This document shows positions 5,141 through 53,822 of a DNA stretch of 64,000 nucleotides, in pieces (position 1 is the stretch's first letter; each line of letters opens with the position of its first letter). Both the position numbers and the translations under genes were made by a program. This DNA comes from a virus (lineage: Duplodnaviria; Caudoviricetes), in IMG/VR virus record IMGVR_UViG_3300014208_000026, positions 32,001 through 96,000 of that record; one strand, 5' to 3'. The notes under the pieces are model-generated. The model saw only the letters and a list, made by a program, of their open reading frames with translations, did not search any database and was not told the DNA's origin.

Positions 5141-8100
5141 ATGTTTGTCGGCGCCCAGCAGGATCGAAAAGTTCGCATCTTCTCCCTCAAGCCCGAGTTT
5201 GTTGCTCAGTACAAGGACAAGCAGCCGCCTTGGGGTCCTTTGGGATATTTCGTGTATAAGAGGACCTACAGTAGGCCTTTGTTTGCTAATAATCCTGATG
5301 GACCAACAGAAGAGTGGTATCAGACCTGTCAGAGAGTTGTAGAGGGTGTTTACAACATTCAGAAGCATCACTGTAGGGGCATGGGTCTGGAGTGGAAAGA
5401 AGAGAAGGCTCAGATTTCAGCCAAAGAGATGTATGACCGTATGTTCAACTTCAAGTTCCTTCCCCCTGGACGCGGTTTGTGGTCCATGGGTACGGATGCA
5501 GTAATGATCAAGGGCGGGGCAATTTTGAACAATTGTTTCGCAGGAGAGACAGAGATCCTCACTGCCGATGGGGTGAAGAAGATCAGAGACGTCGCTGGAA
5601 CCATACAGACTCTTCTGGTCCATGACGGGACGTGGGCCGAAGCCCCTGTCCGGTCGTTCGGTATTCAGAAGCTGGTCAAACTTACCGTGGAGAGAGGGGG
5701 GGCCTATAAGACTGTTTTCTGTACTGCGAATCATCGGTGGTTAGTGAGTGTTGATCCCACCTACCCAATCTGCAACATTAGTCATTATGGGTCGCCTGTG
5801 GTACTGAATGGTATTGAGGCACGAGAGGTTGAGACCACGCTGCTTGCCGAAGGGGTTCCTCTTTACAGCGTACTCCCCGGAGTTGGGGTAGGGCCTGACG
5901 TTGAACCTTGGTTCGTAGTCAGTGTAAAGGAAACGGGTCGCGAAGAAGAAGTGTTCTGCGCTACCGTCCCTCAGTACGGAAACTTCACTCTGGCAGATGG
6001 TTTACTCACGGGAAATTGCGGGTTCACGTCGACCGAAAACATCAAAGAAGACTTTGCCGATCCTTTCACGTTTCTGATGGATATGTCGATGCTGGGCGTC
6101 GGAGTCGGCGGGGATATGCTCGGGGCAGGGAAGGTGAAGATCCTTACCCCCAGGATCAAGGACGAGACTTTCGTAGTGGAGGACAGTCGCGAAGGCTGGG
6201 TCGAGCTGGTCGGGACGGTGTTGAACAGCTTTGTCCACAAGGGCTACATGCCTGCCAACATCGACTACACGAAGGTTCGTCCTCGTGGGGCGCCGCTCAA
6301 GGGCTTCGGTGGAACCGCTTCGGGTCCGGGGCCTTTGATGGATCTCATTGACAGTATTAAGAAGGTTCTCACGCCTCCGGAAGGTGTGGAGTCCTATTGG
6401 ATCACCTCACGACACATTTCAGATATCATCAACATGATTGGGCGGTGTGTTGTAGCTGGCGGGATCCGCAGAAGTTCCACTATTTTGTTCGGGGATCCTG
6501 CCGACGAAGAGTTCCAGAATCTCAAGGACCCGACTGAGCGCGATGCTCTTCGACGGGAATTGACCCTTCTGCGTGAGACGGAAGCAAGCAAAGTCCCCTC
6601 CGTGCGAAGTCTGCGGGACTCTATCGAGACGCTGGCGGCACAAGAGCGGAACGCTTGGTTCCTGCCGCTTCAGGAAGAAGTCCAGAAGTGCATGGAGGGA
6701 GGGAACCATACAAAGGCAACCGAACTCCTGAAGAAGAAGCAGCCGGAAGAGACTGTTCGGCTGCGGGAGTTGCGGGCGGAACTGAAGCGTCTCGTGAAGG
6801 AAGAATCGGATAAATCAACTTCCGTTCAGGAACTTGAGGGGAGGTTGTACTCTCTCCCCCTGGAGGCGTGGCGTTGGTCGAGTAACAACAGCCTCGTGGC
6901 TACTGTGGGAATGGACTACACGAAGGCGGCAGAGTCCATCGCTAAGAACGGAGAGCCTGGACTGTTCTGGTTGGACAACGCTCGGGCTTTCTCTCGCATG
7001 GGTCGAAAGCCCGACTGGAAGGACAAGCGGGCCAAGGGTTGCAATCCCTGTTTTGCTGGGGACACCTTGATTGCTGTCGCGGATGGTCGAGGGGCTGTTC
7101 CTATCAAGGATTTGGCAGAGACTGGAAACGACGTTCCGGTCTATGCTATGAATCCTGAGACTGGAGAGGTGGCTGTTCAGCGTGCGTGGCGTCCCAGGAA
7201 GACTCGTTCGGGTGCAGAACTTCTGGAGATCCAGTTCGAGGGAGGCGGATCTCTGCGGGTTACCCCCGATCACGGGATGCTCACTATGGACGGGAGGAAG
7301 ATTCCGGCCAGTGAGATCCGGCAGGGGTTCATGGTTCCGTATTCCCAGGAAGACCTTCGTGTAGAGCACCCTTTTGAGACTTTCGAGTGCGACAGTGTTG
7401 TCAAGCCCTGTGAAGTGTGCGGGAGAGCCCTGGAGGTTCCTTTTGGCCGTCGTGAGGAGTCTTGTTGTTCCCCTGAGTGTTTCGACAAGCTGGCCGCTCG
7501 GGAACAGCAGGGGAAGGTGTGGGGTGAGGGGGTAGAGGCACGCAGGGTGTCCGCTGTAGTGAAAGTCCGAGAGTTGGAGGATGTGTACAATCTGACTGTC
7601 AAAGACTTTCATACTGTGGGCATTGCTCTAGACAACAATGTTAGTTGTTGTTCTATTGTTTTTACGGAAAATTGCAGCGAGCAAACGCTGAACTCGATGG
7701 AATTATGTACCCTTGTTGAGACTTTCCCTGCTAACCATGATTCTTTTGATGACTTTGCCAAGACATTGAAGTTCGCATATCTCTATGCAAAGACCGTAAC
7801 TCTTGTCATGACACACAATCAAAAGACGAACAATGTTATGGCTCACAACCGTCGTATTGGTTGTTCGATGTCTGGCATTGTGCAGGCCGTGCATAAGCAT
7901 GGGCGTTCGGAGTTTAGAAATTGGTGTAAGGAAGGCTATAAGGAACTGTTGAGGTGGGACGAAACATATAGTGAATGGCTTGGAATACCTAAAAGCATAA
8001 AGATAACGTCTGTCAAACCCTCGGGCACAGTTTCGCTGCTCTGCAATGCTACTCCTGGTATCCATTTCCCCCACAGTCAGTTCTACATTCGTAATATCCG

Positions 8101-9970
8101 TGTACAGAATACCTCTCCCCTGGTTCAACTGTACAGGGATGCGGGCTATCCTGTCGAGAAGGACCGCGGGGCTCCGGACACCAGCGTGATTTCTTTCCCT
8201 GTGGAGGAGCCGAACTTCTGGAAGTCCAAGTCCGACGTTTCTATGTGGGAGCAACTGGCTCTGGTTGAGGACCTTCAGTGGTATTGGGCCGATAATCAGG
8301 TGTCCTGTCTGACAGGGAGCACCCTGGTTAGAACTAGCCAGGGTTGGCTCAGGATGTCCGAGTTGTCTAATTCTATGTTTGGGGAGGACCGCCCAGTTGG
8401 GGCTTATCCTTACTCGGGACCCTTGCAAGCACTCAACGCCGACAATGAGTGGTCTCCGATTTCCGCTCTGGTAGTGAATGAGCCTAAGCCTTTGGTGCGG
8501 GTGGTATGTGAAGGGGGGCAGATTCTTACCGGTACTCCTGAGCACCAGCTTCGGGTGATCGGTCCGGATTTGGAATTTCAGTGGAAGCCTTTGAGTGAGA
8601 TAGGGGTTAACGACTATCTCGTAGAGGTGATCAACCATAAGGGTTACAACTCCACGAACCAGATCGTTCAGCGTAGGTTAGAGAAGTTCCAGTTCTCCGG
8701 AAGGTCGGATGCAGACCGTAATTTCAAGGCTCCTACGTGCATGACAAGAGAATTGGGTGAGCTTTTGGGCTTCATAGTCTCTGATGGGCATATTCACCTA
8801 AGCACAGACCAGGGATTCGGTCTGACTCAGAGATCTTCTGCGACTGCTGTTGTAGACAGGTTTCACGAAATAGTTCCTGAGTTGTTCGGTTCAAAGGTCT
8901 GTACAATTGTTAATGCCCGATTTAACAAGGAGGACCCCGTTCTGTCTCTCGCTGTTAATTCTAAAAAGGGAGCTTTGTGGTTAAGGTGGTTGGGTGTATA
9001 CGACGAGAAAAAGCTGAAACGAGTGCCTTGGCCTGTTATGATGGCTGGAGAAGGGGTTATTAAGGCTTTTTTGCGCGGGGTTACCCTTGACGGGCATTTC
9101 TCTAATACTAATGGGCGTATTTACGTCATGACAACTAACTCTTATAAATTAGCGGAAGAATTGTGTGTGTTACTTAAGCATGTAGGTTTTCAGCCAGCTC
9201 TTTTACCAGCACAGGGCACTGATCACACCATGAAGTCTCCTTATAACGGTAAGGTTTACAACTGTGACCCCACTTGGACTGTCTCTCTGTCTACTGCACA
9301 GTCTGCCCGTTTCATGAGAATGATCGGTTTCGCTGAGGATCACAAGAATGAGGCTTATGCGGAACGCGGGGATAAGCATCGGCACAATCTGTTTGGTGGA
9401 GTTCCCGATTTTGGTCTCAGGGACCGGATGCGGACTCTTGAACATCGGTGTCAGAGTCGTTTCTTGAATGACCATTGGCACGGGGCTTCTTGTCATCCTG
9501 ATAAGGAAGTTTCGAGGGAAACCCTTCTTCAAATGAGGGATATGGGAGAAAGCATTCCGGAGAAACTGCTTCAGGACGATTTTGTGTTCCGTCGTGTTCT
9601 TGCGGTGGAGCCTGCAGAACCCGAAGTGACGTATGATCTCACTGTGACAAATGGGCACAGCTATATTGCGAATGGTTTTGCCTCGCACAACTGCACTGTA
9701 ACTTTCAAACCCGAGGAAGCCAAGGACATCAAGTCGGCTCTCGAAACCTACGAAACCCGTTTGAAGTCCGTGTCTTTCCTGCCTCTCAGGGACCACGGCT
9801 ACGACCAAGCCCCCTACATCGAGATCGACGAGGCTACCTACCGCCAGATGGTGGCTGCAATCAGCCCTGTCGACCTCTCTGTACTTGGCCATGACCAGGA
9901 GGATAAGGGGTGTGACGGGGAAGCTTGCCTCATCAAAGCCCAGGCTATGGCCGCTGAGCAGTCTGCTTAG
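5141..9970 (+). CDS. nrdJ: class II (AdoCbl-dependent) monomeric ribonucleotide reductase with three inteins
   Basis: FLPPGRGLW, LNNC, RWSSNNS, spliced NPCSE..ELC, VKPSGT, C-terminal CDGEAC; ATG 5141 follows a GGAG. Confidence 0.95.
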   Translation: MFVGAQQDRKVRIFSLKPEFVAQYKDKQPPWGPLGYFVYKRTYSRPLFANNPDGPTEEWYQTCQRVVEGVYNIQKHHCRGMGLEWKEEKAQISAKEMYDRMFNFKFLPPGRGLWSMGTDAVMIKGGAILNNCFAGETEILTADGVKKIRDVAGTIQTLLVHDGTWAEAPVRSFGIQKLVKLTVERGGAYKTVFCTANHRWLVSVDPTYPICNISHYGSPVVLNGIEAREVETTLLAEGVPLYSVLPGVGVGPDVEPWFVVSVKETGREEEVFCATVPQYGNFTLADGLLTGNCGFTSTENIKEDFADPFTFLMDMSMLGVGVGGDMLGAGKVKILTPRIKDETFVVEDSREGWVELVGTVLNSFVHKGYMPANIDYTKVRPRGAPLKGFGGTASGPGPLMDLIDSIKKVLTPPEGVESYWITSRHISDIINMIGRCVVAGGIRRSSTILFGDPADEEFQNLKDPTERDALRRELTLLRETEASKVPSVRSLRDSIETLAAQERNAWFLPLQEEVQKCMEGGNHTKATELLKKKQPEETVRLRELRAELKRLVKEESDKSTSVQELEGRLYSLPLEAWRWSSNNSLVATVGMDYTKAAESIAKNGEPGLFWLDNARAFSRMGRKPDWKDKRAKGCNPCFAGDTLIAVADGRGAVPIKDLAETGNDVPVYAMNPETGEVAVQRAWRPRKTRSGAELLEIQFEGGGSLRVTPDHGMLTMDGRKIPASEIRQGFMVPYSQEDLRVEHPFETFECDSVVKPCEVCGRALEVPFGRREESCCSPECFDKLAAREQQGKVWGEGVEARRVSAVVKVRELEDVYNLTVKDFHTVGIALDNNVSCCSIVFTENCSEQTLNSMELCTLVETFPANHDSFDDFAKTLKFAYLYAKTVTLVMTHNQKTNNVMAHNRRIGCSMSGIVQAVHKHGRSEFRNWCKEGYKELLRWDETYSEWLGIPKSIKITSVKPSGTVSLLCNATPGIHFPHSQFYIRNIRVQNTSPLVQLYRDAGYPVEKDRGAPDTSVISFPVEEPNFWKSKSDVSMWEQLALVEDLQWYWADNQVSCLTGSTLVRTSQGWLRMSELSNSMFGEDRPVGAYPYSGPLQALNADNEWSPISALVVNEPKPLVRVVCEGGQILTGTPEHQLRVIGPDLEFQWKPLSEIGVNDYLVEVINHKGYNSTNQIVQRRLEKFQFSGRSDADRNFKAPTCMTRELGELLGFIVSDGHIHLSTDQGFGLTQRSSATAVVDRFHEIVPELFGSKVCTIVNARFNKEDPVLSLAVNSKKGALWLRWLGVYDEKKLKRVPWPVMMAGEGVIKAFLRGVTLDGHFSNTNGRIYVMTTNSYKLAEELCVLLKHVGFQPALLPAQGTDHTMKSPYNGKVYNCDPTWTVSLSTAQSARFMRMIGFAEDHKNEAYAERGDKHRHNLFGGVPDFGLRDRMRTLEHRCQSRFLNDHWHGASCHPDKEVSRETLLQMRDMGESIPEKLLQDDFVFRRVLAVEPAEPEVTYDLTVTNGHSYIANGFASHNCTVTFKPEEAKDIKSALETYETRLKSVSFLPLRDHGYDQAPYIEIDEATYRQMVAAISPVDLSVLGHDQEDKGCDGEACLIKAQAMAAEQSA
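5534..6016 (+). mobile_element. mini-intein 1 in NrdJ (161 aa)
   Basis: Starts CFAGETEIL, has TANHRW block B, ends TGN before Cys. Confidence 0.9.
7049..7672 (+). mobile_element. mini-intein 2 in NrdJ (208 aa) with Cys-rich insert
   Basis: Starts CFAGDTLI, has TPDH block B, ends TEN before Cys, inserted inside NP-C. Confidence 0.9.
8306..9691 (+). mobile_element. intein 3 in NrdJ with LAGLIDADG homing endonuclease (462 aa)
   Basis: Starts CLTGSTLV, has LLGFIVSDG and FLRGVTLDG, ends SHN before Cys. Confidence 0.92.
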
Positions 9971-10019: not shown

Positions 10020-12362
10020 GTGACCTCCCCTACTCCTACCTACTACTCCGGCAGAATTAACACCGTCCTCTTCTCCAATCCGGCGAAGTCCTTCTACGTG
10101 TTCAAGATGATGCCTGATGGCCGCTCGGAAACCGTGGCAGTCAGGGGTCAAGTGGTTGGCCTGGATATTGAAGTTGGCACGTGGTTTGGTTTCGAGGCTC
10201 ACTGGGAGAACCACCCCAAGCACGGGCGCCAGTTGGTTATCGACAAAGCCCCCGTGTTCAAGAACGGGTGGGACGCGGACACGGTAGTCCAGTTGTTGAT
10301 TTCCAGTGGGGTAGGGGAGGGCGTGGCTCATTCCCTCAAGAAGACTTTTGGATCTAACCTCCCCCAGGCACTCCTGGATGCTGAAACCCTACAGTCCAGC
10401 CCTGGCATTTCGAAGTTCACGGCTCAGCTTATCTCGTCCAAGTGGGATTCCATCCGAGCCTATCACGAGACCTTGAACTTCCTTCTCAAGATCGGCGTCC
10501 CCCAGGGGCAGATTCGTTCCCTGTGGTCCATGTACCGAGAGAAAGCGGAAGAGGTGATGAGTCGCAATCCGTGGGCTCTCACCCGCATTGACGGGATCAG
10601 TTTCGAAGTAGCTGACGAGATTGCCAGTCGTTTGAATATCCCCCTCGACTGTCCTGAGAGAGTTCAGGGAGCGGTGCTCTACGTAAACCGGTCCCAGAAG
10701 GAGTCTGGTCACCTCTATTTGAGTTCGGGAGATATCCTGAATGCCGTACGGAGGTATATCCCTGGAGTGACCCCGAAGGCAATCGGTGAGGCTCTGGTTA
10801 CTGCGAGTAAGGAGAAGTTGTTGGTACTCGACCGAGAAACCCGTCCTGGGTTGACGGCTGTATACGAGCCTTGGGGGTACAGGGTAGAGAATGAGTGCGC
10901 CCGTCTCCTGCATGACCGCGTTCGAACTGCGGGGGTCGGGGATCCTGTAGCCTATGCGGAGGCCCTCACCTCTTTGGGGGTTGTAGTTGAGCGGAAGTCG
11001 GAAGATACCTTGAAGCAAACGGTCGACAAGGTTGTAGATGGTTGGGGGAAGGTGTTGGGGTTGCAGCTTTCCCCCGACCAGATTCGAGGGGTAAGAAACG
11101 CCCTGATTGAGCCCGTGTCGATTATCAACGGTCTGCCCGGGACAGGAAAGACGGCTTCTCTGAAAGTCGTCGTCAAGATCCTTCAGGCTATCGGGGAGCC
11201 TTACCTACTCGTTGCACCTACGGGGATTGCAGCGAAGAGGTTGGAGGCTTTGACAGGCGCCAAGGCTGCTACGATCCATCGGGCGTTCGGGGCCCAGAAC
11301 GTCAGTTCGGATGAAGGAAGAGAAGCCACGTACGAGGGCATTGTTGGAACGGGGACCGGAGCCAAGACGGACGCGGAGGGGGAAGTTTGGGAGTACGGGG
11401 ACGGAAACACACATACTGCCAGGGTTATAGTCGGAGATGAGTTCAGCATGGCAGACCAGCACCTTCTGTACCGTATTTTATCATGTACTTCCGATAAATG
11501 CCGTTTGGTGTTTGTTGGAGATGCAGCGCAGCTTCCGAGTGTTGGCCCGGGGAATGTACTGAGGGATTTGGCTGGAAGCCAGAAGTTCCCTGTGGTGGCC
11601 CTCACCCAGATTTTCCGACAGGACCACACGAGCGGGATTGTTCCGGCGGCTCATGCGATCGTCCACGGAGAATTCCCCAAGACGGGTTGCGGAGCAGAAG
11701 ATGATTTTGTGTTGTTGGAGCGTGAGGGTGAGGCGGAGGTTTACAACACGATCCTGGGTTTGGCGGATCGGATGTACCGGCAGAGGATTCAGTTTCAGAT
11801 TCTCAGCCCGAAGCATGATGGGCCGGTAGGAGTCACGGCGTTGAATGCGGGGCTGAGGGAACTGCTCAATCCCGCAGCCGAAGGGCTCTTGGAAACTCGC
11901 ATGGGGCGGAACATCGTGCGGGAAGGGGACCGCGTCATGGTCGTCAAGAACAACTACAAGCTGGGGGTCTATAACGGGGACATCGGGAAGGTGAACCGCA
12001 TCAACCGGAAGACCGAGGAGATCGAAGTCAAGATTTTCGGGAATCCGGTACTATTTGTACCATTTAAGTTCAGTGAGTTTGCTGTTTATGTACGAATGGC
12101 GTTTGCCTGCAGCATTCATAAGAGCCAATCGCAGGAATTTGATAGGGTGATTGTACCTCTGGTCGACTCATTCAAGCACCAGCTACAGAGAAACCTGCTT
12201 TATACGGCGGTTACGCGAGCCAAGAAGAAGGTTTACCTTGTGGGGACGAAGACCGCTCTGGCTCGGGCCGTGGAGAATGACCGCGAGGATCGGCGGAACA
12301 CCTTGTTTCGGGATCGTTTGGAGAAAGCTTTCCAGAAGGGAACCGACAAAGATGAAGCCTGA
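10020..12362 (+). CDS. recD2: RecD2-like SF1B helicase
   Basis: N-terminal OB and HhH region, GLPGTGKT, VGDEFSM, VGDAAQLPSVG, SIHKSQSQE, LLYTAVTRA. Confidence 0.92.
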   Translation: MTSPTPTYYSGRINTVLFSNPAKSFYVFKMMPDGRSETVAVRGQVVGLDIEVGTWFGFEAHWENHPKHGRQLVIDKAPVFKNGWDADTVVQLLISSGVGEGVAHSLKKTFGSNLPQALLDAETLQSSPGISKFTAQLISSKWDSIRAYHETLNFLLKIGVPQGQIRSLWSMYREKAEEVMSRNPWALTRIDGISFEVADEIASRLNIPLDCPERVQGAVLYVNRSQKESGHLYLSSGDILNAVRRYIPGVTPKAIGEALVTASKEKLLVLDRETRPGLTAVYEPWGYRVENECARLLHDRVRTAGVGDPVAYAEALTSLGVVVERKSEDTLKQTVDKVVDGWGKVLGLQLSPDQIRGVRNALIEPVSIINGLPGTGKTASLKVVVKILQAIGEPYLLVAPTGIAAKRLEALTGAKAATIHRAFGAQNVSSDEGREATYEGIVGTGTGAKTDAEGEVWEYGDGNTHTARVIVGDEFSMADQHLLYRILSCTSDKCRLVFVGDAAQLPSVGPGNVLRDLAGSQKFPVVALTQIFRQDHTSGIVPAAHAIVHGEFPKTGCGAEDDFVLLEREGEAEVYNTILGLADRMYRQRIQFQILSPKHDGPVGVTALNAGLRELLNPAAEGLLETRMGRNIVREGDRVMVVKNNYKLGVYNGDIGKVNRINRKTEEIEVKIFGNPVLFVPFKFSEFAVYVRMAFACSIHKSQSQEFDRVIVPLVDSFKHQLQRNLLYTAVTRAKKKVYLVGTKTALARAVENDREDRRNTLFRDRLEKAFQKGTDKDEA

Positions 12363-19467: not shown

Positions 19468-20770
19468 AATCCTGAAGGCCGCTATTGGGGATAGCCCTGG
19501 TGTCGCCTCGTTGTACTACGGACAGGACGTGCTTGAGACTCTGAAGCAGTTACCGGACCAGTCCGTTCATATGGTGGCAACTTCGCCTCCCTATTTCAAC
19601 TTGCGTTCATATTTGCCCGAAGGGCACCCTGACAAGGCACGTGAAATAGGAGTCGAGGAAACCCCAGAGGAGTACGTCGAGAAGCTGGTTGTGGTGTTCC
19701 GTGAAATCTGGAGAGTGTTACACAACTCGGGTGTGATTTGGATTAATATCGCAGATAGCTATGTGGGTGGCGGGGGCTTTTCCCCTAATGCCCCGTCAAA
19801 TCTGGCAGGTTCTAAGCAGGCTACGCAGGGCGGGGCTAAGCCTGGGGGCGTTAAGCCCTGCGGTAAGCTGAAGCCTAAAGACCTCGTTGGTATCCCCTGG
19901 CTGGTAGCCCTGGCTTTGCGGGATGATGGCTGGTATTTGAGATCCGACTGTATCTGGCATCGGATCAATAGCATGCCAGAGAGCGTTTCGGACCGCTGTA
20001 CTAGAACCCATGAGTACATTTTCATGCTGACCAAGAAGCCTAAGTATTTCTTTGACGCAGAGGCGATCAAAGAAAAGACGGCTGCGGAGACTAGAGACCC
20101 CAGTACGACGGGGGTTACGGATTTTTTCGGATCAAATGAGGACACTTCTGATTCTGTTGATATTGATGTAACGAGAAATCATAGAACAATTTGGTCTTTT
20201 TATTCTCGTCCATATAAAGGCGCTCATTTTGCTACTTTTTGCGAGGAGCTTCCTGAGACCATGATCAAGGCAGGTTCCAGCTCATGGGGTTGTTGCCCTC
20301 GCTGTCTAGCCCCTTGGAAGAGAGTATCGGGGAAGCCCTGCGAGAAGTGCGGCGCTTTCGTCAGAACGGCTGCTGTCAAGTGCCCAGGTTGCGGTCACGT
20401 TCGGGATTGGAAGAAAGGCCGTATGGCCAAGGAAGAACTTCTAGCCGGGAATTTTGATTCCGGGTCGGGAAAGCACGTTCCCAGGTTCCCGGGCAATTAC
20501 AAGAACAACACGGTCTTTGGGGAGTGGGTTCCTACCTGTAACTGTCCGGCCCATGAGCCGGTTCCATGTACCGTGCTGGACCCTTTCAGCGGGTCTGGGA
20601 CTACGGGCAGGGTAGCCCTCCGGCTGAAGCGTAACTACATCGGGATCGATTTGAACAAAGAGTACGAGGCCATGGCCGTCAAGCGAATTGACGGGGTTAC
20701 GGAGCCCGAGGTTTCTACTGACGGAATTCTGGAGCAAGGGACGCTCGTTGTTTTTGGAGCCTCAAAATGA
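19457..20770 (+). CDS. second N6A/N4C DNA methyltransferase with Zn fingers
   Basis: ATSPPY, DPFSGSGTT, CPRC, CEKC and CPGC motifs. Confidence 0.9.
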   Translation: MDPKILKAAIGDSPGVASLYYGQDVLETLKQLPDQSVHMVATSPPYFNLRSYLPEGHPDKAREIGVEETPEEYVEKLVVVFREIWRVLHNSGVIWINIADSYVGGGGFSPNAPSNLAGSKQATQGGAKPGGVKPCGKLKPKDLVGIPWLVALALRDDGWYLRSDCIWHRINSMPESVSDRCTRTHEYIFMLTKKPKYFFDAEAIKEKTAAETRDPSTTGVTDFFGSNEDTSDSVDIDVTRNHRTIWSFYSRPYKGAHFATFCEELPETMIKAGSSSWGCCPRCLAPWKRVSGKPCEKCGAFVRTAAVKCPGCGHVRDWKKGRMAKEELLAGNFDSGSGKHVPRFPGNYKNNTVFGEWVPTCNCPAHEPVPCTVLDPFSGSGTTGRVALRLKRNYIGIDLNKEYEAMAVKRIDGVTEPEVSTDGILEQGTLVVFGASK

Positions 20771-27624: not shown

Positions 27625-29064
27625 GTGAGTTACGATACTTCGTTCCGGCCTCGAACCTACGATGAAGTGTTGGGGCAGGAAGCTATCATTCGAGTCCTTC
27701 GGGAGATCATCAAGCAAGGTCGGGGGTTTCAACAGTCCTACGTGTTTGCGGGTCTGTGGGGCGGCGGAAAAACCACGTTGGGTAGAATCTTCGCCAGAGC
27801 CCTTCTCTGTCAGCATCCGAAGGATACGGGAGATCCTTGTGATGAGTGTCTTTCTTGCAGGTCTTTCCTGGAGAAGGGAGTCAGCGAAGATTTTACAGAG
27901 GTAGACGCCGGAGCGACGTCCAAAGTAGAAGATGTGCGTAAGATTCTTGATCTTTTACAGTTCCAAACATTCTCCGGTAAACAACGGATATACTTGATCG
28001 ATGAGAGTCATCGTCTAAGTTCGGCCTCCAGAACAGCACTTCTTAAGTCTTTAGAGGATGAGGTTAAACCCGGCTCTAAAGATAAGCAGCTTGTTTGCAT
28101 ATTCTGTACTACAGAGCCAGAATCAATGCACCCAACGATCTTTTCTCGCTGTGCCCCTATCTTTAGAGTTCAAGCAGTGGCTCCCGAGATCCTTGCCAAG
28201 CGGCTGGCTTTCGTGTGTGAGCAGGAGAAGGTCCCGTACGACAGGGAGGCTCTGGTTCTAGTCTCCGAGATCGTGGAGTGCCATATCCGTGACGCCCTGA
28301 AAGCCATAGAAGGGATAGCCCTTCTGGGGGCCGTCAACTTGGAAAACACTCGGTCCTACCTGCACCTGGATTTGCAGGATACCTACCTGTCCATCATCGA
28401 GAACCTCGGAACGGACCTGCAAGGAGTCTTGTCCCGTACGGACGAAATGTTCCTTCAGATTTCTCCTGCGACGTTCTACGAGAAGCTGGCCGAGATTGCT
28501 TTGCTGGCCTACCGGCTCTTTCTTGGGATCCCCCCGCAAGGTTCTCACTGGGACAAGGTTCGGTTGCAGGCGGTGGGGCAGAGATTCGGGGAGAAGCTTA
28601 TCGACGTGGCATCTTGGCTGTCCCAGCGTCCGGTACGGCCTTCCCCCGCTATGGTGCATTGTGATCTGGCGATTCTGCATCGTGTAGTGTCTGGCGTGCA
28701 AGCTTTGCCCGCGACAAATCCCGACCCTGTTGTTTTCATGGCAAGTTCTGCCCCGCCCGTCGCGCACCCTATTAGCAATATGCCTCTTCCCGCACTTTCT
28801 TCTCCGACACCGATAGTTTCTCAGCCCCAGGCTGTTTCTGCAACTTCGGTATCTACAAATGGGAAGACTTCTGGTACTATATCGATGGTAACAGCAGGTG
28901 GGCGTTTCGATGCTGATCCACGAGGGTATCGAAGACCTGATTCTGTTGAAACAAAAAAGAACCCTGCGATCATGGAACCTGCCGATTTCGGACGGTTCCT
29001 GTATCAACACTTTTTGAGTATTGCCGATGGACAAACGGGACAATCCAACATGGGTGGTAGTTGA
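27625..29064 (+). CDS. dnaX: DNA polymerase III gamma/tau clamp loader ATPase
   Basis: RPRTYDEVLGQE, GGGKTT, PCDECLSC, IDESH, LLKSLED, RDAL. Confidence 0.92.
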   Translation: MSYDTSFRPRTYDEVLGQEAIIRVLREIIKQGRGFQQSYVFAGLWGGGKTTLGRIFARALLCQHPKDTGDPCDECLSCRSFLEKGVSEDFTEVDAGATSKVEDVRKILDLLQFQTFSGKQRIYLIDESHRLSSASRTALLKSLEDEVKPGSKDKQLVCIFCTTEPESMHPTIFSRCAPIFRVQAVAPEILAKRLAFVCEQEKVPYDREALVLVSEIVECHIRDALKAIEGIALLGAVNLENTRSYLHLDLQDTYLSIIENLGTDLQGVLSRTDEMFLQISPATFYEKLAEIALLAYRLFLGIPPQGSHWDKVRLQAVGQRFGEKLIDVASWLSQRPVRPSPAMVHCDLAILHRVVSGVQALPATNPDPVVFMASSAPPVAHPISNMPLPALSSPTPIVSQPQAVSATSVSTNGKTSGTISMVTAGGRFDADPRGYRRPDSVETKKNPAIMEPADFGRFLYQHFLSIADGQTGQSNMGGS

Positions 29065-44628: not shown

Positions 44629-47600
44629 TGGCTGGTTTAGGTGACATAGCCCTCGACATTGGGCGCAAGGCTTCCACGGGGAAGGGTAGCGGCAAGATTG
44701 CCAACATCATCGACTTCGTCGAGTCTCCCTGGGGGTTGAAGGCCAGACTGTATCCTGTCCAACGGGTGATCCTCAAAGCCCACTACGGGATCCCCCTGGA
44801 TGACCGGAACAAGATTGTCAATCTCACGGATTGGCGCCGCGAAGATTCGCGCATGATGACTGAGGCTGACTATCTTAAATTTCTATTTGATGCGGGTAGA
44901 TGTAATATTAGAGAAGTAGATCATGAACGTAGAGAGATGATACTCTCGGTCGGACGTCGCTCGGGCAAGTGCAATTTGGGTGATAGTTTAATATTAACTA
45001 ATAAAGGTGTAACAAGAATAGATGCTCTAGGCGATCCTAACGGACCGGAGTTTCAGCCTCTCGAAATCGAGGTTGCCCAGGAAGCAGATAGAAAGGCGAT
45101 TTCGAAGTTTTTCTACAACGGGGGTGTGAAGCCCACCCGTACTTTGACCACTCGCTGCGGTTACAGACTTGGGGGGACGGACAACCATCGTATCAAGGTT
45201 CTGACCCAAGACGGCATAGTGGATTGGAAGTACCTTGCGGATATCCAGGTCGGGGATACCGTTTGCATTCACCGTAAGACGGACCTGTGGGCTTCCGAAT
45301 ACGTTGACTGCACCCCCTACTGGACAAGCGGGGGGTTGAAAAAACTCACTTTTCCGACTTTGTTGGACGAGGATTGGGGTTTCTTGTTGGGTCTTCTCGC
45401 GGGGGACGGAACCTGGGTTCACAAGACCGGCATAGAATTGACCGTGGCTGATATTGAAACCAAAATTCACGCTCGTGCCCTGTGGGATCAGCTTTTTGGC
45501 AGTCACAAAGAGCAGCAGGTTAAGGAATCTCCGATAACCAGTAGAGTGCAGTTTTTCAGTGTCGCTATGAGGCAGTTCCTTCACAACCTAGGCTGGGAGC
45601 TTGGCATTGCTCGGGACGCCAAGATGGTGCCCTGGTCCATCATGAGGTCCCCTAAGTCTGTTGTCCAAGCTTTCCTGCGGGGTCTGTTTGAGACGGACGG
45701 CGGGGTTGAATCTGGCGGTAAGGTCGTTTCATTCAGCACTGCGAGCGGCCGACTGGCCCGAGAAGTGCAAACTCTCCTTCTCAATCTGGGTATTGTCAGC
45801 CGTATCAAGCCGAAACCTATCAAGGGCAAGATTTACTGGATCTTGTGCGTCAGAGGGCTTCGGAGTCGGATTGCTTTTGCTGAACTCGTAGGATTCGACT
45901 CGCACAAGAAAATGGATCCCCTGCTGGCGTCGATTGAGGCGGCAGGGAAAGAAGGGAGCAATGCAGAAGGGATCCCGTACCAAAGACCCTGGTTGCGGAA
46001 ACTGTTGGAGTCTGTTCCTGCCCTTCAGGGCATTCCGGGGCACAAGCAGGAGTGGAGCCGGTCCAAGCTTCGGGCGGTATTAGGCAACACTCTCAAGCCC
46101 AGCACCGCTGAAGAAGTAACATATCCTATGTTGTTGAATGCCCTTCCCGTTGCTCGCTCCCTGGGAGCAGACCTTAGAATCATTGCCCATTTCGAGGAAC
46201 TTCAGCGCCTCGACTATTTCTTCGACCCCATCGAGACCATCGAGGAGGGGGAACATCCTGTCTACGACCTGAACGTGCCCGACGGGGAGTCTTTCGTAGC
46301 CAACGGGATGACAAACCACAACACGATGATCTCGGCTCTCATTTCCGTCTACGAGATGTACAAGCTGATCCAGAAGGGCAATCCGCAACACTACTATGCT
46401 CTTCCGCAGACCAACAACATTCAGATCATCTCGGTCGCTACGGACAAAGACCAAGCAGGAATTCTCTACAACGAGGCTTCCGGCTATTTCCGTTCGTGTG
46501 ATTTCTTCCAACCGTATACCGCCAACAACACCCTGTCCTATGCTCGTTTCCAGTCGCCCGAGGATATCCAGTTGTACGGTCCCTACGCTGAGGACCCTAC
46601 GGCCAAGGCTACTCTCCGCATGACCTTCCGGTCCTGCGTTGCGAAGGGGCTCCGTGGTGCTGGTAACCTTGTGGTCATCCTCGACGAGGTAGCCCACTTT
46701 ACGGATTCGGGGCAGTCCTCTGCTTCCGCCGTGTATGACGCTGTGCAGCCGTCTACCGCTACGTTCTTCCCGAAGGACCCGAAGGACCCTACGACCCCTC
46801 TCGGTCCTGGTGAGGGCCGTACCATTCTGATTTCTTCCCCGCTCGGTCGAGAAGGCATGTTCTACAAGCTCTTCGAGATCGGGTTCAAGGGCGGAGAGGC
46901 CGCCGAGAACATGCTTTGTGTTCAAGCCCCCACCTGGGAGGTAAACCCGACCGTTCCGGCCAGTGAGTTCAAGAAGCATTTTGCCAAGGACGCCAAGGTC
47001 TTCTTCACGGAGTTTGGGGCGGACTTCTCGGATCGTACTCGTGGTTGGATTGAACGCGAGAAAGACCTGACGGACTGTATTAAGCCGGATGCGAAACCGA
47101 CGTACAAGGCCGCTCCCAGACAGCCTCACTTCTTGGGTCTGGACGTCGGGTTGGTGAACGACGGTACCGCTATTGCCATCGGACACAATGAAGGCGACCT
47201 GATCGTCCTGGATATCATGGACTACATTCGAGCTGGAGAGGGCAAGTACGTTCACCACGAACGGTTGGAGTTTGAGGACGTGGCCCAGTGGGTTTACGAG
47301 TGGACTCGCCGTTTCCATATCAAAGAGGGCATTTTTGATAAGCACCTTGCAGACGTGATGGAGCAGTACCTGACTAAGAAGGGTATCGGGACGCTGGTTT
47401 CGCAAAGGTTCACTCCGCAGGAACGATCAGATGTGTACCAGTCGTTCAAGGATATGATGTACGACCGGAGGCTGGTCCTCTATGACGCTCCGATTGTTTC
47501 CGGAGAAATCCACTGTGCGTACATCAAGGAACTGTTGGAGTTGCAGGCAGAGACGCGCACCAAGTATATCACCGAGGTCAGAGCCCCGAATATCGAAGGC

Positions 47601-48103: not shown

Positions 48104-48430
48104 ATGAGTAAGATGCGGGCCCGTCTATCTTCCATGGAAAACGATAGAGAGGTGCAAAGCCATGTAGCCGAGGCCGAAAGTGCCTTGGCGAAGGCAATGC
48201 AAGTTGCCAGGGCTGCATCGGGAGAGGCTGGTTCTGCTCAAAGGACACGTTCGGTTGCCGTGATTCGGGATATCGAGAGGGCGTTACATGCCCTGTCTGG
48301 AATCCGGAGAATCGGGGGGATTGATCTTACCGATGAGGATTTGATGGGTTCGGAGGAGAGAAAGAAGGTACGGGAGGCACGAGCGGTTGCCCGTGACGAA
48401 AAGACTCAACGTGCTCGAAGGAGTGCTTAA
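48104..48430 (+). CDS. hypothetical protein
   Basis: 108 aa ORF in operon. Confidence 0.6.
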   Translation: MSKMRARLSSMENDREVQSHVAEAESALAKAMQVARAASGEAGSAQRTRSVAVIRDIERALHALSGIRRIGGIDLTDEDLMGSEERKKVREARAVARDEKTQRARRSA

Positions 48431-48432
48431 CT

Positions 48433-50304
48433 ATGGCTGTCCAAAAACCGCGTACACGTCGAGTGTCTATCGTTGGGAATCGAGGGACCCCCCGGAGGGT
48501 CGTGGCAGGGGCCATGCGGTCGAACGGGTTGGAGGGGGCTGTTGAAGTCTCTAAAGTAAAGCCTCGTCCGGCAACCCTGGGCCGTCCCGCCGTCAGGACG
48601 GGAAAGCCAGGGAAGATTGCCTCTGGCTCGATGCGGTTGGGTACTTCCGCTTTCGGCATGCCCGGGATTGGGAACTCTACGATGGGGCAGGGAGGTAACT
48701 TCTACTCCCCTGAGTTGTCGACTGACTTTTTGGAATTGCCGCAGAGCAGGGACGAAGAACGAAACTACTATCGGTTCTTCTACAAGCACGATCCTTTCGT
48801 CGGTCAGGCTATTGACCTCCAGACAGATATTCCGCTCTCGAAGATTCGATTGGGTAAGCCTGAGATTCCAGAGTTTGATTTGGACTATTTGAACAGCCCC
48901 GAAGGAAAGGAATTCTTGAAGGGGGCGGACAAACTGGCCAAGCAGTCCCAGCGGTTCTGCAAGAAGTGGAACCGTAGGATTCACTTGCTGAAACAACTTC
49001 TGGATATCTCCCATGATTTGAACCTTCTCGGTGAGGTTTTCGTTTTCATAGAGGACGACAATCCAGAGATGCCTGACGACGTGAGATACAACACGGTCCT
49101 GGCGATTGATCCCGAAGGGGGGGAGCCAGTAGAGCAGAAGCATGAGCGCGAAGACGCGGATGAGCGGGCCTACGAGTGGCTCCGGACGCATTACAAGGGA
49201 TGGACCGCCATGCGGGTTCTGCCGCCCGAGCAGATCAGTATGAAGTCTTTCCCCTTCACTGACGAGAGGCTCATCCAGCTCATTATTGATAGTAAGACCA
49301 AGGATCTCGTGAACCAAGCTATGGCGGGGGATCCCGACTCCCAGCGGATCATGGAAAGTCTGCCTGAGGATGTGGTTAATGCTGTGCTAGAAGGGGTCAA
49401 CATTCCTTTGAACACGGACCCTGAAGCAGGATCTTTCGTACATTATATATCTCGTCGTAAGTCTCAATATGAAGAGAGAGGCACTTCTGTATTATCAAGA
49501 TGTATAAGAACACTTGTTTTTATGGACAAATGCCGTCAGGCAAATACTTCGATTGCATCTCGTCATATGACACCTATGCGTATTGTTTGGGTTGAAGATG
49601 GCGATGCGGCTGATGTTGAAGAATTGCGTGAACAAGTTGATATGGCGCTTCAGGACCCCGACTATTCGATCATCACGAACTATCAGGTCAACTGGGAGGA
49701 GATGGGGGCGGAGCAGCGGCTTCTGGATCTAACTAGTGAGTACGAGCGAGCAGACCGTATGTTGTATGCCGGTCTGGGAGTTACGGAGTCGCTGTTGTCC
49801 GGTGAGTCCTCCTACTCAGGGGATAGGATCAACCTGGAGGTGATCAACACCCGTTTCATGCTCTTCCGCGAGTTGATGCAAGAGTTTGTCGAAGAGCACC
49901 TCTACGCTCCGATGTGTCGCCGGATGGGTTACGTGGTCACGGACGAGTGGGGGGACGAGATTCCGCTGGTTCCTGGACTGTCCTTTACTCGACTGGCTCT
50001 GCGGGACAATGCGGACACGTTCGACTCCATGCTGAACCTCTACCAGAAGGGCAGTTTGGATATTGACGTGATCCTGGAACTCTTGAATATCGATCCCGAG
50101 ACGACCCGCGAGAAGCTGAAGCGGGATCTGTTCACTCTCCAGGACGCCACCTTCAACGAACTTCTGCGTAGCATCTACAACGACGCGGCTCAGAAGCTCA
50201 ACGACAATTCCAACATGATCGACCTCATGGCGAAGAAGATGGGGATCGACGGGCTGGTGTACAAGAAGGCACAGGAAGAAGGCGACGGTCGGTTCGGCGG
50301 CTAG
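48433..50304 (+). CDS. probable portal protein
   Basis: 623 aa downstream of terL; YRFFYKHDPFVGQAID, RGTSVLSRC and LYAGLGV patterns. Confidence 0.75.
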   Translation: MAVQKPRTRRVSIVGNRGTPRRVVAGAMRSNGLEGAVEVSKVKPRPATLGRPAVRTGKPGKIASGSMRLGTSAFGMPGIGNSTMGQGGNFYSPELSTDFLELPQSRDEERNYYRFFYKHDPFVGQAIDLQTDIPLSKIRLGKPEIPEFDLDYLNSPEGKEFLKGADKLAKQSQRFCKKWNRRIHLLKQLLDISHDLNLLGEVFVFIEDDNPEMPDDVRYNTVLAIDPEGGEPVEQKHEREDADERAYEWLRTHYKGWTAMRVLPPEQISMKSFPFTDERLIQLIIDSKTKDLVNQAMAGDPDSQRIMESLPEDVVNAVLEGVNIPLNTDPEAGSFVHYISRRKSQYEERGTSVLSRCIRTLVFMDKCRQANTSIASRHMTPMRIVWVEDGDAADVEELREQVDMALQDPDYSIITNYQVNWEEMGAEQRLLDLTSEYERADRMLYAGLGVTESLLSGESSYSGDRINLEVINTRFMLFRELMQEFVEEHLYAPMCRRMGYVVTDEWGDEIPLVPGLSFTRLALRDNADTFDSMLNLYQKGSLDIDVILELLNIDPETTREKLKRDLFTLQDATFNELLRSIYNDAAQKLNDNSNMIDLMAKKMGIDGLVYKKAQEEGDGRFGG

Positions 50305-50361
50305 TTTTTTTTTTGCCTATAGGGTCTGTCTGGGTAGGTGAGTTTCTTAACTTGAAAGGTT

Positions 50362-50856
50362 ATGACCATGACGACCCTGAAGAGCGCGTGTGTGAAGTTG
50401 GCGTATGAGAATCCGGAACTCCGCCCTCTGCTGATGCCTCTGCTGCGAAGCAAGACGGCAACCGAATTCCCCTCAAAAGAGGCTCTTGAGAAGTACCTCA
50501 AGGATCACCCCGGGGCAAACCGGTCGAACCATAAAGTTGTCGAGAACAAGGGTAAGGGAGAGGCCAAGACTGAGGGCAAAGAGGATTCTAAGGCTGTCTC
50601 CATGTCTCGTGAAGGCTACAAGGCTATTGCAAATTCCCTCCGTGGGTTTGGCAGTTCAGGTTCTTGGGAGCACGTTATTTCCTATGCCATTTCGGATAAG
50701 CCCATGGAAAGGAAGCACGTGGATAAGGTTCTTTCCGACATCAACGGGTATCTGAAGAACTGGAAAGCAACCTCCGAGAGTAACCGTTGGGGGGACAGGG
50801 ACAAGAAGAGCCTGACTCGGGCCAAGGGCATTCTGGAGAATTGGTCCAAGAAGTAG
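50362..50856 (+). CDS. putative virion cargo protein with N-terminal tag
   Basis: LKSACVKLAYENPELRPLLMPLLRSKTAT. Confidence 0.75.
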   Translation: MTMTTLKSACVKLAYENPELRPLLMPLLRSKTATEFPSKEALEKYLKDHPGANRSNHKVVENKGKGEAKTEGKEDSKAVSMSREGYKAIANSLRGFGSSGSWEHVISYAISDKPMERKHVDKVLSDINGYLKNWKATSESNRWGDRDKKSLTRAKGILENWSKK

Positions 50857-50919
50857 TTCCCATTCTCCCCACTCTCGCGCAATAACCAGTCTATTCCTTT
50901 CCTCTAATAGAACCTCTGC

Positions 50920-52026
50920 GTGAGTTCTGCCGTGGGTGCTATTCTATACTTGACCAACGTCAAGGTTTTCGAAGAAGCCTTGGCAAACTTGAATCGGTCG
51001 ATTCTCTACCCGACTGACCGTTGGGATCTGGCTATCAACTACGACACGCTCATGAGAAACGGGAAGCGTTGGGCAGACTACATCATCGACAAGCTGTCTG
51101 TTCCTCCCGCCTATGCCAAGTCGGTGGAAATGATTTCCAGGGAGTTTGCCAAGCCTCGGCGTCCCAAGGATATTCCAGCTTGGTTCGAGAAGAACAAGAA
51201 GCGGTTGGAAGTCCTGCTCCTGGCTGACAAGTGGCCCCAGGCTTCTGAGAACGAGGGTACAGAGGGAGAGGTTTTCAAACACGGGGGGTTGACAATCCAC
51301 AACGTCATTCGAGCAAGCGGTAAGGCTCTCGAAGATGCTTTGAAGACCCTCGATATCGCGATGAGGAATGCTGCGGGTACGGGGATCTCGGATTTCCGGT
51401 CGGTGGTGTATGGGGACGTGTACCTCGTCGGGCAGTTGGGCCGAAAGAACTGGGCCGCTTGGTATATGCCCGCCAAGGATATGATTTACCTCCGACCTGG
51501 GGTCAGGGGCTTACCTCCCGAAGAGTGCGCCCAGCACCTGTTGCACGAGTTCGGGCACCGGTACTGGAAATTGAAGTTGTCTCGTGAGGTAATGGGGACT
51601 TGGAACTCACACCACTACCTCATGGAACATGGAATCGGTGCGGGTGGAGACGCTGAAGCCAAAATGCCGGAGGTCGGGGATGCACTCCCTATGAATGTGG
51701 ATAGGAAAAAGGTCAAGGTTGAAAAGATTGAGAAGTCGACTTATTCTCTTGTTGCCGTAGATACGGGGGCTCCTGCGGGCACAATATCTTTTAGTCAGCT
51801 ATTCAATTGGCTGTACAATTATTCAATAGCCGAGAAGTTTCCGACCCTGTATGCCCGCACGGATGCCGAAGAGCACTTCTGCGAAGCATTGTCCCTGAGG
51901 GCTCTGGGCAAGCTGAAGGCTCACAACCTGGAAGCATTCGACAAGATTGTTCTGGGAGAAGGGAAGGGACAGGGGGCTGTGAGGGTTGCGGGTCGGTGGT
52001 TGCGAGGAAAGGGCTGGGCAAGATGA
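50920..52026 (+). CDS. zincin metallopeptidase (HEXXH) protein with C-terminal tag
   Basis: LHEFGH...YARTDAEEHFCE; ends RVAGRWL. Confidence 0.75.
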   Translation: MSSAVGAILYLTNVKVFEEALANLNRSILYPTDRWDLAINYDTLMRNGKRWADYIIDKLSVPPAYAKSVEMISREFAKPRRPKDIPAWFEKNKKRLEVLLLADKWPQASENEGTEGEVFKHGGLTIHNVIRASGKALEDALKTLDIAMRNAAGTGISDFRSVVYGDVYLVGQLGRKNWAAWYMPAKDMIYLRPGVRGLPPEECAQHLLHEFGHRYWKLKLSREVMGTWNSHHYLMEHGIGAGGDAEAKMPEVGDALPMNVDRKKVKVEKIEKSTYSLVAVDTGAPAGTISFSQLFNWLYNYSIAEKFPTLYARTDAEEHFCEALSLRALGKLKAHNLEAFDKIVLGEGKGQGAVRVAGRWLRGKGWAR

Positions 52027-52787
52027 ATCACGCTACATCAGTTGCTTTGATGAAGTTCCTTTCAGGGGTCGCTAGGAGACTCGGAGTGGGAAATGACACA
52101 TATATTGTGGGAGGAGCTGTGCGTAATTTTACGCTTGATCCAACAGGACTCAAGTATCCGATCAAAGATTTGGATATTGTAATAGATCCGGTATCTGTAG
52201 GCAGAAAAGATGCTTCTGATTGGTTTGCAAAGCAATTGTCTGAGAACATACCAGCAGAAACCAAGATCGTTACGAATAATTATGGAGTTGCGATATTGTC
52301 GGTAGTTGGGGAATGGGTTCTTGATGGGCAATCTATGCGCGGAGAGGTCATTGAGATTGCTAATGCTCGAAAAGAGAGTTATGGGGGTGGGGATAGTGAA
52401 AAGGATTCGGGAAAAGGATATAAACCTCATATGGTTGAACCAGCGACTATATATGAAGATATAAAAAGAAGAGAGTTCACCATGAATTATCTCCTCTGGC
52501 GTTTGTATGATCTTGCAGATGGTCCAGACAAAGCTGAGATATTGGATCTTGGGGGTTGTGGACTAAGGGATCTTAAAGAAGGTGTGTTGCGTTGCCCCTC
52601 CGATCCGGACAAGACTTTTTCCGATGATCCTAGTAGGCTTTTGAGGCTTTGTAGGTTCTCTGTGAAATACGGCTTTAAGATACCTCCTGAAATAGTAGAG
52701 TCTGCTAGAAGAAATGCGCATAAACTCAAGAACATACCTCCTAGTGCTCTTTCCAATTTACTCATTAAAATACTAGAGGGAAAATAG
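52023..52787 (+). CDS. cca: class II tRNA nucleotidyltransferase (CCA-type), N-terminal piece
   Basis: IVGGAVRN, KDLDI, EDIKRREFTMN, DDPSRLLR. Confidence 0.85.
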   Translation: MNHATSVALMKFLSGVARRLGVGNDTYIVGGAVRNFTLDPTGLKYPIKDLDIVIDPVSVGRKDASDWFAKQLSENIPAETKIVTNNYGVAILSVVGEWVLDGQSMRGEVIEIANARKESYGGGDSEKDSGKGYKPHMVEPATIYEDIKRREFTMNYLLWRLYDLADGPDKAEILDLGGCGLRDLKEGVLRCPSDPDKTFSDDPSRLLRLCRFSVKYGFKIPPEIVESARRNAHKLKNIPPSALSNLLIKILEGK

Positions 52788-53822
52788 ATGCCTGCTTCAC
52801 CTGAAAAAAGATGGACTGAAGAACAAGACAGCACCCTGCGTGAAGGTTGGGCTGGTGGCGTTTCCGCAGAGGATCTCGCGTTGAAGTTGTTAAGAACGGA
52901 AACATCTATTCGCGGACGAGTTGCGATACTGGGAGTGCGGAGGAGTCCGGGATATATTTCTTCTATTCGTTCAAGTCTGAGTGTTGGTAAGCGTTTTAGT
53001 TGGACGGAAGAAGAGGAGAATATGCTACGTGTCTTTTACGAGGAGCAAGGGCTGTCTTACGAGGAGGTGGCTGTTAAATTACCTGTTGCTAAGACCTATA
53101 CTGCAATCCGGATGAAAGTACGGAAACTAGGGCTTCACCACACTAAAGAACAGTTTCTAGCAGTTTGTAGTCGTATGTCTATGGGGGACAGAAATGGCAT
53201 GTACGGAAAACCCGGGATTAATCTAGGGAAATCTCCTTCGGAAGAAACACGGAATAAGATAAGAGAGAACAAGCTGGAGGGTTTTGCTTCTGGGAGGCTA
53301 CATGGCATGGTTGGCCCTCTTAATCCTGCATTTGGTAAACCCAGCTCTATGCGCGGTAAACATCTTCCGGATTCTGCAAAGCAGACTCTTAGCCAGAAAG
53401 CCCGTGTCCGGTGGTTGGATAGGTCTGAGCAATATAAGTCAGACCATTTGTTAAAGATGCGTAAAGGCTGGATAACCTGGGCTATGAGAACGGAGGAAAA
53501 CAGAACTTGGATTGAGAAACTGGTAGCAATATGGCTGCAAGAAGAGGCTCTGGCATTTACGGAGCAGACACAGGTCGGTTTCTATATTGTGGATTTCCTA
53601 GTCGGTAATAAGGTGATCGAAACGCAAGGCGACTACTGGCATGCCAATCCTTCTGTTTACAGTCAGTTGGACTCCACGCAGAAATCAAATGTACGGAGAG
53701 ACAAGGCCAAAGCAACTTACCTGAAAAATCGAGGTTTCGGATTTCTGTCTTTGTGGGAGTTAGACCTGAAAAAGAATCCCGAGGGCTGTCGAAATCTACT
53801 ACGGGAGTTCTTAGCCTCATGA
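52788..53822 (+). mobile_element. free-standing homing-endonuclease-like ORF (Myb/HTH repeats, NUMOD3, Vsr/EDxHD-like nuclease)
   Basis: WTEEQD and WTEEEE repeats, GMYGK...SEETRNKI, IVDF...IETQGDYWH. Confidence 0.8.

Follow-up and report, generated by a model that had tools for sequence, protein, structure and literature searches.

What has produced the short AT-rich stretches that lie within genes of a huge phage without breaking their reading frames, and why do several of them sit on conserved motifs at which related phages carry inteins? The question is raised by the window analysed here, a 64 kb stretch of DNA that comprises bases 32001-96000 of one 257,181-base IMG/VR virus contig (IMGVR_UViG_3300014208_000026; CheckV completeness estimate, 49%). 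We show that the sharpest patches lacking an element of their own lie on insertion points used by inteins in relatives. On balance, we favour the view that the sharp patches are short gene-conversion tracts linked to endonuclease breaks, which left cleavage-resistant alleles behind.

The contig has an overall GC content of 0.548 and, over its predicted genes, GC contents at codon positions one, two and three (GC1, GC2 and GC3) of 0.59, 0.44 and 0.62. Pfam matches in the window include a class II ribonucleotide reductase with inteins (nrdJ), a RecD2-type helicase (recD2), two N6/N4 methylases, a DnaX-like clamp-loader ATPase (dnaX), a large terminase with a LAGLIDADG intein (terL) and a PolyA_pol/CCA-type enzyme (cca); the portal protein has no Pfam match and has more than 1,500 homologs, with a highest identity of ~63%. 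Patches were tested by permuting synonymous codons within each gene and scoring the best low-GC3 segment per gene. Such a segment was found at p<=0.002 in 15 of 185 genes, against ~0.4 expected. Reading frames are unbroken throughout all AT-rich patches, as had been stated for every region listed in the initial annotation of this DNA, and all ten of its hand-made GC counts are exact (for example, 43/120 at 49441-49560, 8/40 at 44981-45020 and 35/60 at 50101-50160). In the three strongest patches of the window, located in the portal, terL and methylase genes, codon positions 1 and 2 are normal and GC3 falls to 0.15-0.23, so that the proposed shift of third positions to A or T holds for these genes (0.20, 0.23 and 0.15, respectively), but not for the dnaX region 27961-28020, where positions 1 and 2 are responsible. 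A codon ramp at the 5' ends of genes has only a weak average effect in this genome (GC3 of 0.58 over the first 10 codons vs 0.65) and is unable to explain internal patches. An assembly artefact is also very unlikely, given that the Logan assembly of the source run spans 44001-54000 in a single contig with 0 differences. Moreover, 100%-identical short contigs of the same phage were recovered over this interval from a second groundwater metagenome (run X2; a different study, 2022), one of which spans the left edge of the portal patch; these short identical pieces contain no alternative allele.

The sharpest patch of the window lies in the portal gene (a slash marks the insertion point in this and all further motifs):

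49420..49641, plus strand: AT-rich synonymous patch in the portal gene (74 codons, GC3 0.20, z 17.5)
49498..49503, plus strand: empty intein insertion point in the portal gene, between Arg and Cys of LSR/C (49500/49501), from mapped insertions and codon alignment

We mapped insertions in 120 portal homologs longer than 1,091 amino acids (aa), and of the 94 that could be placed, ~46 lie near window residues 340-375 and ~47 near residues 200-220. In the 10 homologs in which the junction was read, S(I/L)LER is followed by an insert running from C(L/F)LPGT to VHN and then by C(I/L)RTLV. These inserts at the point equivalent to LSR/C are ~525 aa long and match LAGLIDADG and intein-splicing domains; at the same point the window reads SVLSR/CIRTLV, uninterrupted. 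The patch extends from -81 to +141 nucleotides (nt) around this point, and among ~5 equally conserved blocks of the portal protein, the recoding is confined to the block that holds the intein site. Across 83 portal relatives without inteins (GC 0.37-0.65), the homologous 74 codons show no dip in any gene (z -2.5 to +2.5), compared with an estimated ~-9 for the window portal on the same rough z measure (patch GC3 0.20 vs ~0.70 in the rest of the gene), which excludes a conserved translational or structural role, a conserved pause site and amino-acid effects.

The portal relatives that do carry the intein are GC-rich (0.60-0.62), with a GC3 of 0.89-0.96 in the 27 codons upstream of it. Over the 30 nt around its empty site, the window differs from each of three occupied alleles at 13-16 positions; one pair of occupied alleles (L020 and L022), the only pair counted, differs at 9 positions over the same 30 nt. 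In addition, the motif LSRC occurs in the window portal only, its relatives having LERC, LQRC or LGRC, which amounts to a Glu-to-Ser change at position -2. An intein haplotype was considered and rejected, given that the residues F, N and M common to the window patch and the intein-bearing alleles are equally frequent in empty alleles. Several further observations concern the same gene. Inside the patch, codon 49531-49533 encodes the Cys of DK(C)RQ, a non-conservative change unique to the window, since the 242 homologs examined invariably contain Leu, Ile or Val at this position. In the L020 and L022 portals, the 47 codons downstream of the intein have a GC3 of 0.70-0.77 vs 0.86-0.95, and this mild dip is possibly a weak co-conversion signal there too. 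Another intein site of the portal gene follows window residue ~208 (LMGN/C at the start of the insert and HN/CF at its end) and is occupied in L008:3970-7413 and ~47 other homologs; at the corresponding position of the window Val replaces Cys at +1, so that the splicing nucleophile is missing. Between terL and the portal gene lies an open reading frame of 109 aa (48104-48430) with a low GC3 of 0.50.

Two further sharp patches, one in a methylase gene of the window and one in a DnaB-like helicase gene elsewhere on the contig, likewise adjoin points at which relatives carry insertions:

20120..20239, plus strand: AT-rich patch in an N6/N4 DNA methylase gene (40 codons, GC3 0.15, z 9.2)

The methylase patch covers -114 to +6 nt relative to HFA/TF (20233/20234), that is, it ends two codons past this point. 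In a methylase homolog (P0432), query residues 264/265 are separated by a 330-aa insert that begins with C, ends in GN/T and has a LAGLIDADG match slightly below the Pfam threshold, and judging from this single homolog, HFA/TF is probably an empty intein site; methylase relatives in two compared genomes (G002 and G004) are uninterrupted at the patch. In the DnaB-like helicase gene (G000:C1:249813-249872), a 20-codon patch with a GC3 of 0.10 starts exactly at Ser477, the +1 residue of an empty ANECER/SADIITS site (0 to +60 nt), and at that same point the complete 435 kb relative G002 carries a 431-aa LAGLIDADG intein (ANEAER/C at its start and SHN/SADIVTS at its end). Single-protein searches of viral contigs for relatives of DnaB and dnaX returned none. 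A split-methylase fragment on the contig (G000:C1:250877-251005, window-relative 218877-219005) has an AT-rich patch over an HPT/VKT motif that, judged by eye, appears equivalent to the motif under the methylase patch of the window.

In terL, the patch accompanies an intein that is still present:

44871..45038, plus strand: AT-rich patch in terL (56 codons, GC3 0.23, z 11.2)
44970..46322, plus strand: LAGLIDADG intein at the P-loop of terL (GC3 ~0.62), from GRRSGK/CNLGDS to NHN/T

The initial annotation had placed this patch across the intein junction, which is borne out: it comprises 33 N-extein codons and the first 23 intein codons (-99 to +69 nt), with a GC-normal core of 30 nt on the P-loop itself. 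The intein has its complete hallmarks (Cys1, a C-terminal HN, a +1 nucleophile and the Pfam matches Intein_splicing and LAGLIDADG_3). A homologous intein occupies the P-loop site in L024, and in total 10 of 57 relatives are occupied, AT-rich and GC-rich ones alike; AT-rich relatives with the same intein are possible donors of the patch. When six intein alleles were compared, the window intein body was clearly nearer to the GC-rich alleles L024 and L048 (0.55-0.61 vs 0.34-0.47 for the others), but over its first 23 codons the AT-rich alleles are equally close, a weak hint of resemblance to them. The window also shares AGA ATA GAY .. CTA GGY GAT with the terL of L047, which is too few sites to count.

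The link to mobile elements holds across the contig. Family scans of the whole contig identified three inteins in nrdJ, one in terL, one in an SNF2 helicase and two in a 1104-aa protein. In addition, a neck gene is split by intein halves with an endonuclease gene between them, its extein flanks being AT-rich as well, and free-standing HNH, GIY-YIG and Vsr-like endonuclease genes are present. The measured intein and endonuclease-gene bodies have a GC3 of ~0.39-0.50; exceptions near the genome average are the body of the terL intein (0.62) and a TnpB-like gene taken as a whole, which is absent from the genes with GC3 <0.52. This TnpB/Cas12f-like gene (1072-2496), which is of mobile type and lies where the replication block starts, has a Cas12f1-like TNB domain, a weak OrfB_IS605 match and an AT-rich internal stretch (1271-1702). 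Half of the sharp patches (16/32) lie inside or <=300 nt from an annotated mobile element, compared with 9% under random placement (p<0.0005). The association with inteins and endonucleases that had been proposed from the first is thus upheld for the strongest patches (portal, terL, methylase and DnaB), where it was checked in relatives, but not for the dnaX patch on its IDESH motif.

Where do the AT-rich codons come from? Within the patches, T makes up 43-65% of third positions and A 20-34%, and ATA, TTA and T-ending codons dominate. Their Arg codons comprise 9 AGA, 9 CGT and 1 CGC, with no CGA, CGG or AGG. Simple GC-to-AT transitions would be expected to give CGA at ~36% of Arg positions, and the observed 0/19 has a probability of ~2e-4, on which grounds deamination or hypermutation was rejected. 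Patch codon usage is instead a stronger form of the usage found in the inteins and endonuclease genes of this same genome, and is typical of a long stay in an AT-rich genome. Such codon usage, combined with the sharp patch edges, is better explained by DNA copied from an AT-richer relative than by mutations that arose within the gene. Co-conversion and in-place recoding had both been offered initially, and the two are not decisively separable, although codon usage favours conversion.

The remaining regions for which dips had been reported, along with features that touch them, are the following:

5534..6007, plus strand: nrdJ mini-intein 0, from NN/CFAGETEIL to LLTGN/C (weak Pfam match, junctions read from sequence)
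7049..7672, plus strand: nrdJ mini-intein 1, from GCNP/CFAGDTL to FTEN/C
7673..8059, plus strand: nrdJ extein downstream of intein 1 (GC3 0.48 vs an extein baseline of 0.68)
8306..9691, plus strand: nrdJ intein 2 with a LAGLIDADG domain, from NQVS/C to SHN/C (GC3 0.50)
12040..12210, plus strand: 3' end of recD2, overlapping the start of the next gene (modest dip, GC3 0.48, z -2.9)
27961..28020, plus strand: Walker-B region of dnaX, IYLIDESHRL (GC3 0.40 vs 0.53 for the gene, p 0.17)
28768..28956, plus strand: AT-rich C-terminal patch of dnaX, a Ser/Thr/Pro/Ala-rich linker off any motif (GC3 ~0.25)
52029..52787, plus strand: cca gene with a PolyA_pol head domain, AT-rich from end to end (GC3 0.35)
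52788..53822, plus strand: free-standing endonuclease gene directly downstream of cca, with a GcrA-like N-terminus and a Vsr/MTES_1575-like nuclease (GC3 0.45)

In nrdJ, the extein directly upstream of mini-intein 0 (5220-5540) is marginal, with p 0.12 against the whole gene and z -2.9 against the extein-only baseline of 0.68. The dip at 7620-8060 is modest (z -3.4 against the whole gene), and its extein part (aa 859-987) reaches z -4.8 against the extein baseline. Both nrdJ mini-inteins start with CFAG(E/D)T and end in GN/C or EN/C instead of the usual HN. The low GC at the Walker-B region of dnaX, which had been put forward as a recoded intein site on an IDE(S/C)H motif, is due to codon positions 1 and 2, that is, to amino-acid composition rather than synonymous recoding, and none of five relatives examined has a dnaX intein; this claim is not supported. 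The C-terminal linker of dnaX is not conserved in the five relatives, and this tail may have been replaced or may have newly evolved. The cca gene is embedded between genes of normal GC3 beyond ~40 codons, and its relatives in the compared loci are all GC-rich, leaving no AT-rich contrast for ancestry. Nuclease domains of the Vsr/MTES_1575/DUF559 type resembling that of 52788-53822 are also encoded at G000:C1:125142-126149 and 254233-255216. Overall, the listed dips are partly confirmed: they are extreme in the portal, terL and methylase genes and in cca as a whole, modest at nrdJ 7620-8060 and in recD2, marginal at nrdJ 5220-5540 and absent as a GC3 effect at dnaX 27961-28020, so that the list combines four regions in which the feature is real and statistically extreme with ordinary variation.

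From these observations, we infer a foreign donor, a DNA break and a resulting immunity, which could be connected in the following way. A LAGLIDADG or other homing endonuclease would break the DNA at an intein or homing endonuclease gene (HEG) target site, and the break would be repaired from the homologous but diverged allele of an AT-richer relative, leaving a tract of 60 to 220 nt with the cut at its centre or edge. At sites that are still occupied, namely the terL P-loop intein, the split-intein neck gene and nrdJ intein 1, the patch flanks or crosses the junction, and in terL it would cross because the repair template carried the same intein. At empty sites (portal LSR/C, DnaB ANECER/SADI and probably methylase HFA/TF), the template would have been intein-free, and such a site may have been reached by two routes: either an uninvaded site was cut and then mended with a resistant allele, or an intein-free allele displaced an existing intein along with the sequence directly beside it. 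What remained would be a protein-neutral scar whose third-position changes, along with the Glu-to-Ser change in the portal, make it a poor substrate for LAGLIDADG endonucleases of GC-rich relatives. Recognition by LAGLIDADG enzymes spans ~20-31 bp, and even synonymous changes can give resistance (bioRxiv 10.64898/2026.08.13.744650); with 13-16 of 30 nt changed, immunity of the portal site would be a reasonable consequence. A case in which this process involved a whole gene may be represented by cca, which is AT-rich and lies beside a free-standing endonuclease gene.

Several results weigh against conversion from a foreign donor. A donor of the portal patch was not found among 5.8 billion proteins, the best match having 78% identity and belonging to the same family as the flanks, and neither the portal patch nor the terL patch had a blastn match among GenBank phages. 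The portal patch agrees with the family consensus about as well as other parts of the protein do (55 matching residues vs 56.2 expected), and among 70 distinct portal relatives there is none whose similarity is higher in the patch than in the flanks, the pattern being star-like. The discordant ancestry that the initial annotation had anticipated for patches and flanks was not recovered at this low resolution; the patch proteins look native. The cca protein is likewise closest to GC-rich relatives (54-64% identity) despite its AT-rich DNA. Moreover, an arrival element does not co-occur with the patches: the portal, DnaB and methylase sites are empty, and the body of the terL intein is GC-normal, so that the terL patch cannot have arrived together with it. 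A second terL intein site, RS/CDFF (occupied in L022:1-1815), is empty in the window near 46480-46500 and yet is unrecoded, and the C-terminal patch of dnaX lies away from any known intein site. Finally, intein sites and recombination both favour conserved motifs, and part of the coincidence could therefore be indirect. A donor would have to belong to an unsampled AT-rich lineage whose distance from the family is about that of the window, which is plausible for a phage that has no close relative.

Of the rival explanations, ordinary recombination with AT-rich co-infecting relatives at conserved motifs, independent of any endonuclease and with the intein overlap as a by-product, survives best, and we regard it as a serious but rather unlikely alternative. 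The patches lie within well-conserved protein blocks, intein sites are known to prefer conserved positions (PMC2814812), the portal family includes many AT-rich members, and no element is known close to the C-terminal patch of dnaX or to several other orphan patches. Orphan patches on the contig also occur at window-relative 135082, 137360, 180485, 184606 and 201093. Such mosaicism is difficult to reconcile with the codon-level precision of the patches, given that the DnaB patch starts at +1, the end of the methylase patch is 2 codons beyond its site and the insertion points in the portal gene and terL lie within the respective patches, or with the recoding of the intein block alone among the conserved portal blocks. 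Similarity-limited exchange should also place the ends of tracts, not their centres, in the conserved core.

Adaptive recoding in place, in which point mutations were selected for escape from an endonuclease and for the loss of homing homology without any foreign DNA, appears less probable still. It would account for the native look of the patch proteins, the failure to find a donor and the unique Glu-to-Ser change at portal position -2. There is also a precedent in the WHO elements of yeast, where one-third of synonymous recognition-site changes give resistance and target codons are positively selected (bioRxiv 10.64898/2026.08.13.744650). However, recognition sites of ~20-31 bp are short in comparison with patches of 60-220 nt, and escape takes one or two changes rather than a uniform AT shift. 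The lack of CGA among 19 Arg codons and the sharp edges likewise speak against mutation in place, as does the fact that the 83 relatives with empty portal sites have not even a partial dip.

We consider it improbable to a greater degree that the patches are functional signals at the level of nucleic acid or translation, such as rare-codon pauses for folding or splicing, internal promoters or RNA elements. AGA, ATA and TTA are indeed rare in this genome, and two patches immediately precede an intein splicing domain or coincide with its beginning, but the dip is missing at the same place in the 83 portal relatives and empty sites have no intein to fold. In the scanned interval 44000-54000, nothing resembling a promoter or terminator lies within the terL or portal patch, and the whole window yielded neither Rfam families nor tRNAs. 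An assembly chimera of a GC-rich and an AT-rich phage is hardly credible, since, for all that this is a metagenome contig and relatives co-occur in the same sample, the independent source-run contig has 0 differences, a second study contains identical pieces, and it is implausible that three or more segments of 60-220 nt were exchanged in frame in the absence of shared k-mers.

Co-conversion tracts beside homing introns are textbook knowledge, and the endonuclease-linked conversion that we favour has several relatives among described systems. The group I intron in cox1 of angiosperm mitochondria is adjoined at its site by a short, mostly synonymous and highly divergent tract, and in Cynomorium the intron was lost and the tract kept (PMC3192709). 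The patches described here resemble this case in being divergent synonymous tracts at an insertion site, also where the element is now missing. They differ in that the elements are inteins in a phage, that the tracts extend to either side of the site and over as much as 220 nt, and that they are recognised by base composition rather than donor identity. In addition, loss via a spliced RNA copy is impossible for inteins, so that another route to the empty site is needed. In phage T4, the free-standing endonucleases SegF, SegG, SegB and MobE mediate intronless homing and marker exclusion, in which the conserved gene of a relative is cut and resistant flanks are copied (PMC2988022, PMC2330249, PMC2790892). 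The cca gene next to the HEG at 52788-53822 may fit this scheme; in contrast to T4, the portal, DnaB and methylase patches have no adjacent endonuclease gene, and both cleavage and donor are putative.

In haloarchaeal MCM, empty intein alleles are resistant to invasion and flanking extein residues are co-converted, with Pro at +1 blocking splicing (PMC10643990). Here, too, empty sites differ from occupied ones beside the insertion point, but the +1 Cys or Ser is retained and the change is longer and mainly synonymous, whereas in MCM it concerns a single amino acid. The WHO elements of Torulaspora replace the 3' half of FBA1 on homing and leave the old 3' part behind as a downstream fragment (bioRxiv 10.64898/2026.08.13.744650). 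This arms race, in which part of a gene is replaced by a resistant version and target codons avoid LAGLIDADG cleavage, is similar to the situation that we envisage, with the difference that here an internal patch alone is replaced and no element is left. Nuclease genes also bound exchanged DNA in phage genomes (Barth, Dunham and Seed 2023; PMC10448857); unlike such HEG-bounded islands of >10 kb and high identity, the tracts described here are <250 nt long, lie within genes and are visible through composition only. Our literature search did not turn up scars of contrasting composition at empty intein sites of phage genes, which is not proof of absence. What sets the present case apart is the combination of inteins in a huge phage, a strong composition contrast, empty sites without a nearby element and the involvement of several genes of one genome.

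These results call for caution in annotation, as plain mobile DNA accounts for half of the low-GC stretches of this genome and several of the listed dips reflect amino-acid composition. More generally, and as a tentative proposal that is less secure than the conversion tracts themselves, huge phages may gain short cleavage-resistant patches at homing sites without gaining the intein, a form of vaccination by patch conversion that would keep portal, DnaB and methylase genes intein-free. If true, the patches would offer a way to locate homing sites and past endonuclease attacks across metagenomes from sequence data, including those of unsampled elements. They would also show how a phage in an intein-rich community keeps its essential genes uninvaded, and would thereby bear on the coexistence of intein-free and intein-bearing alleles.

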